Part shown: positions 6,001-12,000 of the stretch, piece after piece
How positions within the stretch are numbered: the first letter of the stretch is position 1
Layout: each line of letters opens with the position of its first letter
Origin: Candidatus Scalinduaceae bacterium
Lineage (GTDB): Bacteria > Planctomycetota > Brocadiia > Brocadiales > Scalinduaceae
Direction: 5' to 3'
DNA length: 52,321 nucleotides
Assembly: GCA_046759445.1 (NCBI GenBank)
Contig: JBHICG010000017.1
Location: 1 to 52,321 of the forward strand
Made by a program: the position numbers

Positions 6001-9000
6001 CTCAGCCTTCCGACCACTTCACCTATATCTATCGATAATACTTCGGCAGTACGCCCTGTGACTGCTAGAACGCCTCGTTTAAATCCTAGGGTATCCTCTT
6101 CACTGGCCATGTGGGAGATTGTTCCCTTCTGCTGTGTTGTTAAAGATAACATCTTATTCCGCCTAAGATAAGTAAGAGTATAATGAGTAAGTTTTCTGGA
6201 AGAATCTACAATGTGAATATCTTTGCCTAAAAAACGTCTCCAAATATCATGTACTGCTTGTTCGAATACACCGTAATGAGTGCAGCCCAGAATAAGGGTA
6301 TCAATATTTTTCTCTATTAGAGGACGTAAATTTGCCTCAAGGATGGCTATAGTTCTTTCGTTCAGCGCCTTAGAATCCATTCTGTCAAACTCTACCATAT
6401 CAACTATAGTAGCTAACAACGGTGTTACAACGCTAAATATCTTTGCTTCTGGATCCTGATTTTTTATTTCCCGTATGTAGGCACCACTCTCTATCGTAGC
6501 TTTTGTCGCGATAATTCCTATAATCCTTGTCTTTATTCCCTTCGTTTTTCCAAAGCTTAAGGCTGCCTTAACAGCAGGTTCAATGGGACCAAGAATAGGA
6601 ATGGAAAATTCCTTAACTACCGTGGCTCTAGCATTAGCATCCATTGTGTTACAAAGGAGAACGATCTTAGCGCCTAAGTTATAAGCAGCCTCTACATATA
6701 TCCTACAAAGTTGCTTAATCCTTTTAGACGAACTTCCTCCAAGCCGCTTTGATAATACGCTGATTAAGACAACATCCTCTCTATCAAGACCTTTCAGCTT
6801 TGATAAATTCTCTTGTCCAATTGCAGGTGCAACTCCTGTGTCTAGGACTACGATTTGTCCATTAGGTTTATAGTCCCTAAACGGAAGGTACATCACGGCA
6901 AGAAGTCTTTTGATGGCCAGTATATCTTTGGCAATGGATGGCACCACCCCATATTTCTCATCAATTCTTGACACTTGTTTCCTGTAATGTTTTCCAGCCT
7001 TCGATATTTTAGAGACTAGTTCCTTCATCGCAATCGCGCCTCTTTTTGTCGCTCTCCACTCCTTCAGCCACATTAGTGCAGCATCATGATAGGGAGTTGC
7101 GAGTATTATTGCTTTATCTTTATCCCTTTCTTTTGTCTTCTTTTCCTCTTCCATTTGGTCATGTACTTTATACAAAGTATCAAGTAACTCTTTATCCTTA
7201 GGTGCCAGTAGATGTTTTAAAAGTAATGTTTTCAGCGCTTCATCCTCTACCCAGTTTAGTATCTGCTCATCAGTAGTTACACCATCCGGTTCAGGCCAGA
7301 AACCATCAGGACTCATAATGCGGTATTTGGTAAGTCTGTAACCTATCTCCCTTGAGAGCCTTGCTATCTCAGTCTTTGTCATGTGAAGTTCTACTGTTTG
7401 GGTTTGTCCTCTATTTTTATTAACATCTATCAGAGCTACGGCACAGCCAGCTCCCCCTAACTTCACATTATGAAGAGCATGGTACAAACTCTTTTCCATA
7501 GCTAATATCTCCACTTCCTCAAGAACCAGCTTTTCCACAATATCCTTTACATCCTCCAAAGAAGTCTTTCCAATTCTTTTAGGAAGATAGACTTGCTTGA
7601 TAAACTTTAGGACGCCCTGTCCGGGACCAAATGCAAGATTATGCTGAACAAGGAAGAGTTTAATTGGTTTGGTATTACCATCATCCATATTCAGGTCGAT
7701 TGTGTCTATAAATCTCTGCCTTGGCTCTTCCAATTGCTCGAATAAATGATGATGTATATTGAAGAAATTTTTATCTCTCTCTTGGAGAACGAGCTTGACT
7801 TTGGCGATACGACGATGTATTTTCCTTAAGGTAGTTGGTTTCTTTCGTTTTTTGCTAATTTCATGCTTTATGTGATCTGATGACATCTCAACCTCTTACT
7901 AGATTACCACATATATAAATTATTGACCAAAGGGGGTTAATTTATAACCTTACTTGTTAATTGATACGCATGCAATAAAAATCAAAATATTCGATTACTA
8001 TCTAGAGCCCAACGCAACTTTATAAAACTATTGTGCCATATGTAAAGAATTCTTTTTGCTAAATTATATTTCACACGGTCATAATTTAAGCTTTTTTAAT
8101 AAAAGGCTGAAACCCTGGCGTGTCGCCAAGGCAGGACTATATTCCTGGGGACTTAAGGATTTTGCCTTTTATTTCATTGCTTTCCTGCAAGAACTTCATT
8201 AAGTAAATAGTCTAATTTTTAACAATGAGGAAAGAGCTGATACCGTTAGAAGAGTAGAATTAGAGTTTGTTGTATCAGACGATAAAGTTGAAAAGGTTAT
8301 AGAAACTATTAGGAGTGTTGCTGCAACTGATCAAGGAGGTGATGGACGAACATACATATCAACTTTGGACGTTTCAATCCTTATTCATTCAGGTGATAAA
8401 CATCTGGGGGACGACAGTGAAAAAGGTTTATTGACTGATAAATTTGACAAATAAGATGATGGCGCTTAATTCATAATTGCTTTTCTTGCACGCTCTGGTA
8501 AGGCGGATATTGCCCTCAAGAGGTCATCATTCTCAGATTTGGCGTTAGCAAATGAGCTAAAAAGATTGATAGCTTCCGCATATATGTCATTTATAATTAC
8601 TCTGATATTTTCATCTGTAATCTTGCCGGTATTCAACACCTTTTCCAGATTCGATATCAAAACGACATCTGTCCAGTAATCTAGCGGTATTCGCTTCATC
8701 AAATCATTACTCAGATAAGTAAGATGATCACGCACGGTGTTGAGTAAATCGTCTGTCAAATCCCCCCTCCCCCCCTTTATTAAAGGGGGATTAGGGGGGA
8801 TTACCATCCGAACAACCTCTCTGGATAGCTCGGCAACAGCGACACGTCCTATTGCCATAATGGAAGCCGCTGTCCTCATTTCAATCTTTCGTTCCTGTGA
8901 AATCTTGATAATGTCATCAAAAATCGCGCAAATATTATCCTCAAGCATGCCATTAATTTTTTTTAAGTTCCAACGTTCGTTTCTGAGATTTTGCACCCAT

Positions 9001-12000
9001 TCAAGATAAGACACATAAACACCTCCCAGATTTGTGCTGATATCGGGTGTTATAAAAGCGCCTTTTCTTGTCACAATTTTATCACCATCAGGAGTGATAG
9101 GTCCATTTGCGCCTTCTACTATAATTTTGGCCTTTACGTTATACGCATTCCTGTCTATGGCATTCTCAAGCGCAGCGAGGATCAGGAAGTCAACATCCAG
9201 GGCGAAAATACCCTCGTTTGTAATATCCCTTCCCCCCTGAAATCCTTTCAATAAGCCTGTGCCTGACGTATTCACATGTTTAAATACCGCATCTATGTCC
9301 AGACCATTAGGGTTATAGATACCACCACTGGCATCCGTAATGGCTACCACCTTTACGCCTGCATCGTGTAAAAATTTTGCAGGCGGCCTGCCGACATTAC
9401 CAAATCCTTGTATGGCAGCGGTTGCGCCTTTCAGATTTATGTTTTTATATTTGGCCGCTTTTTTTAAGGCAATAAACACTCCGCGCCCGGTTGATTCAAC
9501 CCTGCCGAGAGAACCTCCTTTAACGTCTGGCTTGCCGGTAACAACGGCAAGCGCCTGGCATTTTATTTCTGTATGCTTTTTTAATATCTTTATACATTTA
9601 TCAAGATAAGGAGTATCCACAGAGGATTCAGAATGCCTGCAAATTGAACGGAAATCATCGGCGATTTCTTCGGTTAATACAGTATCATCAGTAAGCCAAT
9701 CTGATAGGTCTTCTTTTTCTATAGAAGTCTTCAGGTATTCGTCTACAAACCATGCCATCTTTGTGGCATTTGTGTTGACGTCAGGCGCAGGTATGTCAAG
9801 ATGTGGCCCACACGCATTTCTGTTCTTCAATTCTCGGCTGTATTCTCTGATTATCAATGCGTCTTTTCGATCAAGATAGTTTTTTGGGTTTACTATAATA
9901 CCACCTTTTGAACCTCCGTATGGAATTCCTGCAAGGGCGCATTTCCATGTCATCCAAATAGCAAGAGCCCTGACTTCATCAAGTGATACTTCAGGATGTT
10001 CTCTGAAACCTCCTTTGGCAGGGCCACGAGCTGAATTATGGTGTACACGATAAGCAACAAATTCATCTTCCGTAAGCCGCATGGCCTCTATCCGTTCGGG
10101 AGTAAGTAATTTTTGTTTCAGAAATAAAGGAAGCTTAAGGATGTCCGCAACCACGGCAAATTGACTTTCTGCCACTTCGAGTGGACTTGTCATGGCAACG
10201 GCATGCTCCCGTATCTTTGCATATTCCTTAAGGGTAACACTGGGTACGGAAAACAATTGGCTGACTCTCTCAAATTCACCAATTTCTTTTTTGTAGTTAA
10301 TAATATTCTTCGCTACGTTATGTTTAATGTTGAGGAATTTTTCTAATTCTTCAACATTTGCGGCATTAAGGTTTATTTTATCCTTTACGTAACCTTTTGG
10401 CTTAAAGCGTATTTTTGTAGGAAGGTCATCTAAATGGTTAAGCGCCGTCAGTTCCTCACCAGCAAGGAATTTCAAACACGTTTCTCCCATTGTAGAAAGG
10501 TACGTTCTTGGAGGAGGAGTTTTCGTGCCAAGCCTTTTTTGTGCTGCAGCAACACTATGAAGGCCAAAGATAATCTTAGATTCCGCTTCATAGGCAAATA
10601 CATGGTCTAAAATCTGATTCGTGCCCTGGCAAAACACTTCATCTTCATACTTCCCTGCAATTCCGTCTAGGATGATGGTTTTTGAATCCCGCATCTTTTT
10701 CTTTATAAGGGCAACAGTATCAGGGCCAATATCGTATGCCTTCATCTTAGCGAAACGGCCCTTAATTTTATTCACCTTAACTTTTTCGGGATTTAGTCCC
10801 GTCAGCTTTGCCATAAGGTGGTCAACGGGAAGCGTTATGTCCACACCATATCCTTTTGCCATTTCCAGTACTATTGTCGCATTACGGAGGGCCTGTGCTT
10901 GTAAATCAGGGTCTTCTTCAAGCATACAGTTATCCACGTCATATCCCTGAACCTTAAGGAATGGAAATGCAACACCGCCAATGATAATCAGTTTATCAAC
11001 TTTCTCATAAACTATAAGGTTATTCATTGCCTCAACCTTGGCTAAGACGGTGGCGCCGCCAATAATTGCAACTACAGGTTTGTAGGGATTCCTCATGAAA
11101 TTATCAAGTATACTCAGTTCCTGATTAAGCAGGAATCCGGCCACTTTCTGGCCTGAAATAAACCTTGTTATCGGCCCGAGTGATGCATGGTGGCCTATAT
11201 GGGCTGTTACTGGATCGGCATTTACATAGATATCACAGTTAGTAGTATCGTGGAGTTGTCTTGCAAACTCCATAACCTCATTATCGTCCTCTGAGGTCTC
11301 ACCGCTGCGGAACATGACATTTTCCAGCAGAAAGACACCATCACCGCTTACGATGGACTTTGTTTTTCCCCCAATGCAGTCATCAGTTATGATAACCTCC
11401 TTATCTTTTGAGAGAAGCTTTTTGTCCCTTAAGATCTCTGTCAGTCTTTCTGCTACTGGTCTCAGGCTGTATGTTGAGTAAATCTCTCCATCAGACAGAA
11501 CCCCCACAGAGGTCTTCTTATCCTTAAAGAAGTTCTCCCTTCCACCGTTGTGTGATATTATAACAATCGTCCTCGCTCCCTGCTTAAGAATATGGCGAAT
11601 GTCCATGACAGTCGCCCTGATACGCCTGTCGTCTATAATCTTACCATCCCTGACGATGTCGTAGTTTACCCTTAAGAAAACCCTTTTGCCTTCTAAGGCC
11701 GACTTATGAAGATTTCGTATAGGCATCTTATTGGCATAAGGGTACCACTCAAACCCCACATCAGCCTGCTTTGCAATTTTCACATCTAATATCTCCATTA
11801 ATTAATTTCATATTAGCCTATAATATTTCAATATACTTTCGTTGTTAATGTTACTAGTTTATAAAGGCATCAATTTTATAAAATAAGATTTTATCTTCTT
11901 CAATTACCTTTAATTATACGCTCTGCAAGCTCAAATGGGAGCCCGGCTTTAAGGATTTTTGCCTTTACTGCCTCTGTATTATACTCTGATTTTTTAAGAG

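Follow-up and report, generated by a model that had tools for sequence, protein, structure and literature searches.

In this study, we describe a gene of a Candidatus Scalinduaceae bacterium (assembly GCA_046759445.1, contig JBHICG010000017.1) which joins a phosphoglycerate kinase (PGK)-like domain stripped of key catalytic residues, a degenerate helix-hairpin-helix (HhH) module and an intact glutamate dehydrogenase (GDH) in one chain. Taken as a whole, our best explanation, which we put forward tentatively from residue patterns, is that the product is a cytoplasmic accessory paralogue of GDH with a catalytically competent core (residues 537–993), and that its PGK-like half is a non-catalytic appendage that may tune this core. 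The window, by which we mean the whole stretch of DNA that was analysed, comprises 52,321 nucleotides. Translation of the minus strand gives a frame (P0001) with an ATG start, no internal stops and a stop codon at 8466–8468, and together with the Pfam matches this bears out the first-pass annotation, which had described one open 1110-aa reading frame with PGK, HhH and GDH parts. The features are as follows.

8466..11798, minus strand: whole gene, P0001, the 1110-aa PGK-like/HhH/GDH fusion; a single open frame with four Pfam domains
11820..11848, minus strand: promoter-like site TTAACA-17 nt-TATTAT, with 10 of 12 matches, in the 101-bp gap upstream of the ATG
11703..11750, minus strand: conserved N-terminal motif EWYPYA.K.P.RNL (residues 17–32) ahead of the PGK fold, from conservation across 35 family members
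10455..11702, minus strand: PGK-like domain (residues 33–448) with eroded catalytic and substrate residues, from Pfam PGK, PDB matches and a table of key sites
10206..10382, minus strand: degenerate ComEA-type HHH_3 module (residues 473–531), from Pfam HHH_3 (PF12836)
9732..10190, minus strand: GDH domain I (residues 537–689), for substrate binding and oligomerisation, with K595, K619, K631 (GGSKGG) and D673; aligns with 2tmg 6–160
9555..9731, minus strand: 59-aa insert with a TPYLD motif (residues 690–748), which ordinary small GDHs lack; a gap relative to 2tmg
8820..9554, minus strand: GDH domain II (residues 749–993), a dinucleotide-binding fold with GFGNVG; aligns with 2tmg 167–411
8469..8819, minus strand: C-terminal tail of 117 aa (residues 994–1110) with a conserved PLDYW; no known family

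The promoter-like site is weak, because the scan as a whole found 25 sites where shuffled sequences led us to expect 22.8, that is, no excess. A check of P0001 revealed no N-terminal hydrophobic segment or export signal, and residues 1–32 have no Pfam match. Contigs from RNA libraries (two metatranscriptome runs of one study) span both halves of the gene at identities of at least 95%, though such contigs cannot prove transcription.

The GDH half is intact, as had been claimed at first pass. It is matched by ELFV_dehydrog_N (PF02812; residues 580–688, E 1.5e-41) and ELFV_dehydrog (PF00208; residues 761–991, E 8.3e-67), and it keeps 60 of 64 near-universal GDH positions (columns at least 90% conserved among 115 GDHs), compared with 62 in the housekeeping GDH of the same genome. 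The Lys of GGSKGG (K631), the Asp of PAPD (D673) and the GFGNVG motif (G798–G803) are invariant across the family. Also kept are K595 and S930, which lie in columns 97–98% conserved among the 115 GDHs and which we take to correspond to K89 and S380 of the clostridial enzyme, the Lys and Ser that specify glutamate. The half aligns over its whole length with small hexameric GDHs of the Thermotoga/Pyrococcus type (2tmg/1b26, 1gtm; E 4e-102), relative to which the fusion adds about 535 N-terminal residues, the 59-aa inter-domain insert and the 117-aa tail; none of the NCBIfam GDH models reaches its cut-off with it (388 bits against 750). The insert, which has no Pfam match, evolves fast (mean identity 0.62 in the family alignment); the tail has a mean identity of 0.63 and no match in Pfam, PDB or Atlas. 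An insert with the TPYLD motif is present at the same place in P0172 (494 aa), P0180 (800 aa, Verrucomicrobiae), P0183, P0248 and P0251, and phmmer aligns P0172, P0180, P0183 and P0251 with the fusion across it in one stretch. A tree that groups the insert-bearing GDHs and the fusion has the higher score and survives the AU test (p-AU 0.88); unlike the fusion, however, these small GDHs carry no PGK-like or HhH part, and most have a downstream P-loop-like segment or other domains.

Both lobes of canonical PGKs (EC 2.7.2.3; 1vpe, 1php) are matched in full length by the N-terminal half: the Pfam PGK profile (PF00162) aligns from position 4 to 379 of 379 (E 1.6e-76, 258 bits against a cut-off of 27), and the best solved match is 1vpe (E 8e-52). 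However, only 74 of 122 near-universal PGK columns (at least 95% conserved among 102 PGKs) are kept and 48 are changed, including those of the Mg-binding Asp, the GGG loop, K215, R122 and R170, in line with the earlier statement that hallmark PGK motifs are gone. All 35 members have Asn at the equivalent of D23, Val for Pro, and G-L-H (residues 412–414) for GGG, so that G-L-H-S replaces G-G-G-D (Ser in 30 of 35); the Mg position holds an Asp in none of the 35, a second GGG reads M-G-E throughout, and the equivalent of K215 is N in 30 members, D in two, R in two and T in one. The Val flanking the adenine has become Lys or Arg in all 35, and nucleotide binding is therefore doubtful. A 15-aa insertion follows the SHNG motif of canonical PGK. 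A basic patch for the 3-phosphate, the Mg Asp, the phosphate loop and a closure of the lobes by R65/R170 and D218 are described in the accessible portion of PMC7729029, from which we took the residue roles. At the equivalents of R65, R122, R170, H62, D23 and N25, P0001 reads G/R-shift, M, I, H, N and D, and the family majority V, M, M, H, N and D, which leaves the patch incomplete. Crown Scalindua have lost two of the three 3-phosphate arginines (equivalents of R122 and R170) as well as the closure partner at the D218 equivalent. Arg at the equivalents of R65, R122 and R170 is kept only in P0034 and P0035, the two deepest members (P0035 comes from the f5 genome G122), and both have Glu in the D218 column; erosion has therefore been stepwise. 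Recent copying from the housekeeping pgk is rejected in a tree test (AU p = 0.006), and a canonical pgk with all motifs lies elsewhere in the genome, beside the gene gap on contig C76. With these substitutions, the PGK-like half very probably does not catalyse the PGK reaction.

Every part of the protein is under purifying selection. Median dN/dS, taken from the 80 of 153 ortholog pairs with 0.05 < dS < 1.2, is 0.05 for GDH, 0.09 for HhH and 0.10 for the PGK-like domain, and reaches 0.18 in the insert and 0.21 in the tail. Selection on the PGK-like half is thus strong, and this half must have some function. Within the family, the 47 formerly conserved PGK positions that have changed show no significant excess of conservation over the 303 other columns of the domain (top-residue fraction 0.894 versus 0.852, Mann–Whitney p = 0.10), and a re-specified ligand pocket is therefore not indicated.

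A regulatory or scaffold role of the PGK-like half appears most likely. In the arrangement we propose, the pseudo-PGK and the degenerate HhH, together about 535 residues that derive from an enzyme and a DNA-binding fold, would precede the GDH core and the tail would follow it; the pseudo-PGK would have been retained to tune the GDH hexamer, while HhH and tail might be rigid linkers or contact surfaces and not bind DNA. By this means the protein may control how fast, or which way, glutamate, 2-oxoglutarate and ammonium are interconverted, and in these marine anammox hosts ammonium is fuel and nitrogen source at once. As a more specific and still more tentative suggestion, the pseudo-PGK might be a two-lobe, hinge-type allosteric module that ancestrally bound an anionic phospho-metabolite at the then-intact basic patch. 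The putative ligand site is not the same in deep and crown members, which speaks against a single ligand shared by the whole family.

A purely architectural appendage is a less likely alternative. Here pseudo-PGK, HhH and tail would bind no small ligand; they would build or stabilise a given quaternary structure, be it a decorated hexamer, a higher-order assembly or one with a partner, in the way that large GDHs have their oligomer reshaped by extra domains. The PGK-like domain is conserved evenly along its length and the former active-site positions are under no extra constraint; in crown members the closure salt bridge of R65/R170 and D218 has jointly become V/x, M and A, which, with roles as in the available text of PMC7729029, could latch the lobes in a ligand-free state. 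The HhH hairpins are degenerate, with PsbU, a non-DNA-binding HhH fold, among the weak PDB matches. As far as the accessible text of PMC8175468 goes, large GDHs carry sensor-type N-terminal domains, and in the mycobacterial L-GDH180 the extra domains form intersubunit contacts. The extra domains described there are ACT/PAS rather than PGK-like/HhH, and the GDH subfamilies differ: Pfam matches no Bac_GDH-type core or ACT/PAS segment in the fusion, the core of which is of the small ELFV type. On the other hand, a 416-residue two-lobe fold maintained at a dN/dS of 0.10 would be a costly spacer, and the anion-binding patch is complete in the deep members. The first-pass annotation had preferred a sensor or regulatory module; the architecture, the intact GDH and the lost PGK residues on which it relied stand, but with p = 0.10 and a basic patch that differs between deep and crown members a purely architectural role fits equally well, and we do not adopt the sensor or regulatory part as given.

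It seems improbable that the protein is a bifunctional enzyme, in which the PGK-like half would transfer phosphate or perform other chemistry on a new substrate, maybe through the His of the invariant G-L-H, coupled to glutamate/2-oxoglutarate. The strong conservation of the domain would suit such an activity, as would the retention of K254 (the K219 equivalent), H83, R87 and, in 34 of 35 members, R59, and P0198, the sole sister of the PGK-like domain, holds 86 of the 122 near-universal columns and most catalytic residues. However, all members are without the Mg Asp, two of the three phosphate-loop glycines, the second GGG and the K215-equivalent Lys, and no NCBIfam enzyme model reaches its cut-off. 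To our knowledge, ELFV dehydrogenases make no acyl-phosphate, and their chemistry therefore offers no substrate to link the two halves.

The HHH_3 profile is well above its Pfam cut-off (E 8e-12, 45.5 bits against 27), and the best solved matches are the nucleic-acid-related EEPD1, ComEA and TEFM. Some GDHs, such as RocG of Bacillus, reportedly moonlight as regulators, and the module could by analogy bind DNA or RNA and couple glutamate metabolism to gene control. We nevertheless regard such a trigger enzyme as very improbable. In the alignment with ComEA (8dfk, E 4e-4) the GVG and GIG hairpins, which presumably contact DNA phosphates through their Gly-hydrophobic-Gly turns, face NIK and SVT; hairpin 1 (N/K/E-I-K/E) is variable and Gly-free in all 35 members, hairpin 2 reads G (29/35)-V-T (31/35) instead of G-h-G, and no conserved target gene lies nearby in the compared genomes.

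The proposed non-catalytic appendage has parallels among known PGK proteins. According to the available text of PMC7729029, kinetoplastid PGKL combines a dead PGK with cyclic-nucleotide-binding and HTH parts, and a PAS-PGK is also known; the likeness lies in a residue-stripped PGK fold within a large multidomain protein, adjoining a relict motif of nucleic-acid-binding type. In contrast, those proteins are eukaryotic, flagellar or glycosomal, and have signalling domains as partners, whereas the PGK-like domain described here is bacterial and is paired with a complete metabolic dehydrogenase. Thermotoga PGK-TIM likewise has PGK and a second metabolic enzyme in one chain, and among NCBIfam models its own (NF010569) scores best on the N-terminal half, though only at 252 bits against a cut-off of 883 and over the PGK part (model 4–423 of 645), the TIM domain being absent. 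In the same text both halves of PGK-TIM are active glycolytic enzymes; the PGK half of the fusion lacks catalytic residues and its partner is non-glycolytic.

The architecture is narrowly distributed, as first noted. When 1.84 billion 50%-cluster representatives were searched exhaustively, a single full-length one came up. Among 40 proteins at 72% identity or more, 37 have all four Pfam domains and three truncated ones lack one; the source names given are Scalindua, Brocadiia, Brocadiales, Planctomycetes or Planctomycetota. The next homologues (36% identity at most) are GDH only, or PGK joined to something else. The database label for the fusion proteins is 'phosphoglycerate kinase'. At class level 23 of 121 genomes have a match (E ≤ 1e-100); with the window's own genome left out these are 21 of 24 in f1, the single f5 genome and none in nine other families (including 0/45 in f2 and 0/31 in f8). 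The architecture is thus not confined to Scalinduaceae, as had been thought, since it also occurs in the f5 genome and in a protein of a 'Ca. Brocadiales bacterium'. The 28 Scalinduaceae genomes comprise 19 with open frames of 1103–1140 aa, five cut by contig ends or a gap, and four without a match (G008, G009, G017 and G027; 77–94% complete). These four absences, and the finding across the compared genomes of no conserved neighbour pointing to a pathway, speak against our best explanation.

That the gene is a functionless relic of a fusion accident or an assembly artefact, as the short or oddly joined entries P0052, P0324 and P0068 and the four genomes without a copy might suggest, is effectively refuted by intact frames in 19 independent assemblies of three genera and in a genome of a sister family and by the dN/dS of 0.05–0.21 in every part, and the short forms have out-of-frame tails or an internal deletion. 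Two seemingly broken copies were misread earlier: in the one taken to be split in two (G025), a run of 10 N marks an assembly gap, and the supposed in-frame TAA in G004 is where a protein 2 aa shorter normally ends. The neighbourhood in the window is genome-specific, and the earlier remark that it is not kept holds across genomes; the window contains four Amt and three P-II genes rather than five amt/P-II genes. An ordinary 412-aa GDH coexists with the fusion in the same genome, which has further ELFV genes elsewhere.

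The fusion gene is a single open reading frame of 1110 codons with an ATG start, located on the minus strand of the window (8466-11798), and its product contains four domains recognized by Pfam.

Pfam domains of the fusion protein
Residues 33-448: PGK (profile positions 4-379 of 379, E 1.6e-76)
Residues 473-531: HHH_3 (E 8e-12)
Residues 580-688: ELFV_dehydrog_N (E 1.5e-41)
Residues 761-991: ELFV_dehydrog (E 8.3e-67)

The match to the Thermotoga maritima glutamate dehydrogenase (GDH) 2tmg (E 4e-102) falls into two aligned blocks, residues 540-689 and 749-993, and on this basis the GDH core is taken to begin near residue 537 and to be broken by a 59-residue insert; it is followed by a tail of 117 residues. 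Searches of Pfam (at E <= 10), of the sequences in the PDB and of the protein Atlas gave no usable match for the tail, the insert or the N-terminus, and every NCBIfam model stayed below its cut-off on the fusion protein. The protein has no hydrophobic N-terminal segment and should therefore be cytoplasmic. Horizontal transfer of the gene was considered as well, but its GC content (0.38-0.43) is similar to that of the flanks and gives no signal.

Among 5.8 billion proteins, 40 relatives with at least 72% identity were found, 37 of which have all four domains, while the remaining three are truncated and each miss one. The first-pass annotation had proposed that the architecture is confined to an anammox lineage, and this is borne out by the source names of the 40, which, where given, are only Scalindua, Brocadiia, Brocadiales, Planctomycetes or Planctomycetota; in the databases these relatives are annotated as 'phosphoglycerate kinase' or 'glutamate dehydrogenase'. 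Beyond them, identity falls to 36% or less and matches cover one half only. An exhaustive HMMER search of 1.84 billion cluster representatives returned one full-length representative. Among shorter proteins, the only matches ahead of ordinary phosphoglycerate kinases (PGKs) at 33-37% were same-family fragments (76-84% identity). Within the Scalinduaceae, 19 of 28 genomes contain an open frame of 1103-1140 aa, and in five it is fragmentary, interrupted where a contig ends or by a gap; no fusion was found in the other four, which are 77-94% complete. Across the class it occurs in 23 of 121 genomes, by family in 21 of 24 f1 genomes (window's genome excluded) and in the single f5 genome, and it is absent from the nine other families, including f2 (0/45) and f8 (0/31). 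Two copies previously described as aberrant do not count as broken: the one said to be split in two (genome G025) is interrupted by a 10-N assembly gap, and the in-frame TAA of the other (G004) is a natural stop, two residues early. Three proteins were considered as natural short forms and rejected, P0052 and P0324 on account of out-of-frame (frameshifted) tails at their ends and P0068 on account of an internal deletion, and no natural stand-alone or split form of the fusion was seen.

The GDH half appears fully equipped for catalysis. In a set of 115 ordinary GDHs, 64 alignment columns reach a conservation of 90% or more; the fusion family retains 60 of these, as compared with 62 in the genome's own 412-aa GDH. 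Among the retained residues are the lysine of GGSKGG, the aspartate of PAPD and the GFGNVG motif, plus a Lys and a Ser column, which we take to be those specifying glutamate. Besides the fusion, the window's genome has three more ELFV genes. The insert, with a TPYLD motif, is shared with five GDHs that have no PGK-like part, P0172, P0180 (Verrucomicrobiae), P0183, P0248 and P0251. In a first GDH tree the fusion was left unplaced relative to these proteins; with fewer rows, the LG+G4 model and the insert columns removed, the tree joining them beats the free search by 24.5 log-likelihood units (p-AU 0.88), and a common origin is plausible. P0172, a metagenomic singleton and the top-scoring GDH-only match to the GDH half, has a strongly hydrophobic, signal- or anchor-like N-terminal segment, unlike the fusion.

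It had also been suggested that the PGK half lacks hallmark PGK residues, and we arrive at the same result: in a set of 102 ordinary PGKs, 122 columns show a conservation of 95% or more, and the fusion family retains only 74 of them, so that 48 near-universal columns are changed.

Changes at PGK positions in the 35 aligned family members (residue roles as described in passages of PMC7729029)
D23 and N25 (bind O2 of the substrate): N in 35/35; D in 32/35
R122 and R170 (3-phosphate): M in 32/35; M in 31/35, I in the window protein
R65 column: V in 19/35, G in the window protein; an invariant Arg lies one position on
D218 (closure salt bridge): A in 28/35
K215 equivalent: N in 30/35, T in the window protein
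Gly-Gly-Gly-Asp loop (grips phosphates, binds Mg): G-L-H in 35/35, next residue S in 30/35
Second GGG: M-G-E
Adenine-flanking Val: K or R in 35/35

Retained are R38 (34/35), H62, the K219 equivalent (35/35), the N336 equivalent (32/35, D in the window protein) and the ribose-binding Glu (30/35). The window's genome also has a separate, fully canonical pgk gene adjoining the gap gene; given these motif losses and the presence of this gene, PGK catalysis by the fusion is very unlikely and would not be needed, and we are fairly confident, judging by the alignment, that the protein has no PGK activity. Eight Scalinduaceae genomes (for example L056:1956-3260, plus strand, and L057:1818-3074, minus strand) contain yet another PGK paralogue, the third, which is divergent (418-434 aa, PF00162, 290 bits, altered motifs). 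No copy of it was found in the genome of the window; in genome G026 it adjoins a formate-tetrahydrofolate ligase-like gene.

The erosion of the PGK half seems to have occurred in steps. The two deepest family members, P0034 (with a cluster mate named Ca. Brocadiales bacterium) and P0035 (the very same sequence as the protein of G122, the only f5 genome), still have Arg at the columns equivalent to R65, R122 and R170 and Glu at that of D218, and already show N for D23 and G-L-H for GGG, with the Mg-binding Asp gone. As even these members are without the catalytic residues, catalysis was presumably lost before the family arose, and the alignment indicates that the anion-binding patch and its closure partner were neutralised later, jointly, in the crown Scalinduaceae. 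Such a pattern fits either an ancestral sensor of an anion or phospho-ligand with later retuning, or a hydrophobic latch by which a ligand is dispensed with. In trees, the PGK-like domain is joined by one protein only, the metagenomic orphan P0198 (SH-aLRT 99, long branches), a protein of 481 aa that retains 86 of the 122 PGK columns and has many derived states in common with the fusion. Grouping with the housekeeping PGK was rejected (delta lnL 37, p-AU 0.006), with long-branch effects being possible. The next matches to P0198 are only 38-43% identical, and a scan of metagenome contigs did not recover its own contig, the best matches being ordinary PGKs (39-44% identical). This nearest stand-alone relative of the PGK-like half, likewise a metagenomic singleton, has a strongly hydrophobic, signal- or anchor-like N-terminal segment that the fusion does not have.

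Mean pairwise identity among the 35 members is highest in the GDH domains (0.89 and 0.875), followed by the PGK lobes (0.83 and 0.80) and the HhH segment (0.75), and lowest in the insert (0.62) and the tail (0.63). Median dN/dS values, calculated from 18 orthologous coding sequences (80 of 153 pairs, 0.05 < dS < 1.2), are lowest for GDH (0.05), intermediate for HhH (0.09) and the PGK-like part (0.10), and highest for the insert (0.18) and the tail (0.21). By this measure the appendages of the GDH are conserved and not decaying.

The best-supported reading of these sequence data is that the fusion is an active accessory GDH with a pseudo-PGK as a non-catalytic module. Whether this module regulates the GDH allosterically is a more tentative matter, and for that statement as a whole we put the chances slightly below even. 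The main rival, which we consider somewhat unlikely, is a purely architectural role of the appendage. In its favour, the change in the crown can be read as a hydrophobic latch, which would make ligand binding unnecessary, and the 47 changed, formerly universal PGK positions are not significantly more conserved than the 303 other columns (top-residue fraction 0.894 vs 0.852, p = 0.10), a result that also disfavours a re-specified ligand pocket. New catalysis by the PGK-like half is improbable. Nucleic-acid binding through the HhH segment would be more surprising still: DNA-contacting HhH hairpins follow a GhG rule, and in an alignment with ComEA (8dfk) the G-V-G and G-I-G hairpins of the latter lie opposite N-I-K and S-V-T. 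Across the family hairpin 1 is variable and glycine-free and hairpin 2 is G-V-T, and by this rule DNA binding is unlikely. That the appendage is a functionless relic is hardly credible in view of its dN/dS of 0.09-0.21.

A more specific version of the allosteric proposal, which we regard as rather unlikely in its full form, makes the pseudo-PGK a former glycolytic enzyme turned metabolite sensor, which bends at its hinge and allosterically gates a dedicated GDH. In the ancestral form, a phospho-carboxylate such as 3-phosphoglycerate would have been bound at the intact basic patch, and in crown Scalindua the sensor would have been retuned to another ligand, or locked. If true, marine anammox bacteria would possess a switch that links carbon/energy directly to nitrogen, between glutamate synthesis and ammonium release for anammox, and bacteria would have their first example of an entire glycolytic enzyme, now dead, that acts as regulatory domain for a nitrogen enzyme. 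Scalindua-type anammox bacteria are responsible for much of the nitrogen lost from the oceans, and ammonium serves them as fuel and as nitrogen source alike, which makes control of the glutamate/2-oxoglutarate/ammonium node important to them. Glutamate has been described as a compatible solute in anammox bacteria (passages of PMC13597103 and PMC5486813), and an osmolyte link was weighed as a possible ecological reason for the fusion; no observation connects this role to the fusion gene.

Each ingredient of the fusion has a precedent: passages of PMC7729029 describe dead PGK-like domains in multidomain kinetoplastid proteins as well as PGK-TIM fusions, and large GDHs bear sensor-type N-terminal domains according to part of PMC8175468. 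Our literature searches returned no report of a PGK-GDH fusion in Scalindua and nothing for Scalindua with phosphoglycerate kinase, and titles and passages retrieved for Scalindua with glutamate dehydrogenase contain nothing on this protein. The fusion is a lineage-specific, conserved GDH with an unprecedented appendage and a testable object. It contributes a bacterial case to the known pseudoenzyme domains, whose number is growing, and fits the pattern of GDHs with their own control modules. The name 'phosphoglycerate kinase' in public records may mislead metabolic reconstructions of anammox bacteria, and a proper annotation would be GDH with a PGK-like pseudoenzyme domain.

At 18 orthologous loci the neighbours vary by genus and lie mostly on the opposite strand, and the gene therefore looks monocistronic; by eye they include acyltransferase, epimerase, Kbl/Tdh, UbiD, Cu-ATPase and Hsp20/DnaJ genes, with no shared theme. 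The earlier view that the neighbourhood is not kept is upheld, in that the flanking genes of the window lie beside the fusion in this genome only.

Features around the fusion gene in the window
5724-7886 (-): protein of 720 aa with an Asp/Glu racemase domain and a weak match to ELFV_dehydrog_N
7887-8465: unusually long gap of 579 bp downstream of the fusion, with ORFs of only 30-48 aa
11900-13772 (-): Pkinase-like and calcineurin-like phosphoesterase genes, directly upstream on the same strand
12828-25078: dense ammonium cluster
12828-13772 (-) and 18664-19488 (+): two truncated-looking Ser/Thr-kinase-like genes
14301-15860 (+), 16492-17907 (+), 20445-21791 (-) and 23690-25078 (-): four Amt genes
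15965-16303 (+), 21880-22218 (-) and 22517-22900 (-): three P-II genes

A functional link to the window neighbours was rejected, since neither the two upstream genes (Pkinase, Metallophos) nor the downstream GDH_N-racemase gene adjoins the fusion in any of the 18 other loci; the Metallophos gene is present in 25 of 28 genomes, but away from the fusion in the others. The GDH_N part of the racemase-type neighbour is only 22% identical to that of the fusion. The 101-bp gap upstream of the fusion contains a promoter-like site, with the scan as a whole at chance level, and no Rfam family was matched within the window, the 579-bp gap included. In two DNase-treated metatranscriptome runs of one study, contigs with at least 95% identity cover nearly the whole gene, including both halves, and one contig of 678 nt spans its start and the end of the upstream phosphoesterase gene. 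The gene is apparently transcribed; such contigs denote presence in RNA libraries and are not proof of transcription. The 579-bp gap is covered by contigs of run X2.

Lastly, the searches brought up large metagenomic proteins (800-5675 aa) with a small-type GDH core, namely P0180, P0248, P0183, P0199, P0262, P0302, P0272, P0251, P0043, P0306 and P0319. In the eight of these 11 with a mapped GDH end, an atypical Walker-A-like motif that is absent from the window fusion protein, 'GPxxxGK' (G-x4-GK in P0183), lies 68-84 residues past that end. Six of the proteins (P0248, P0183, P0199, P0262, P0302 and P0251) also give weak, sub-threshold Pfam matches to P-loop or other nucleotide-binding families, and this combination of GDH with a P-loop NTPase looks like an undescribed architecture.
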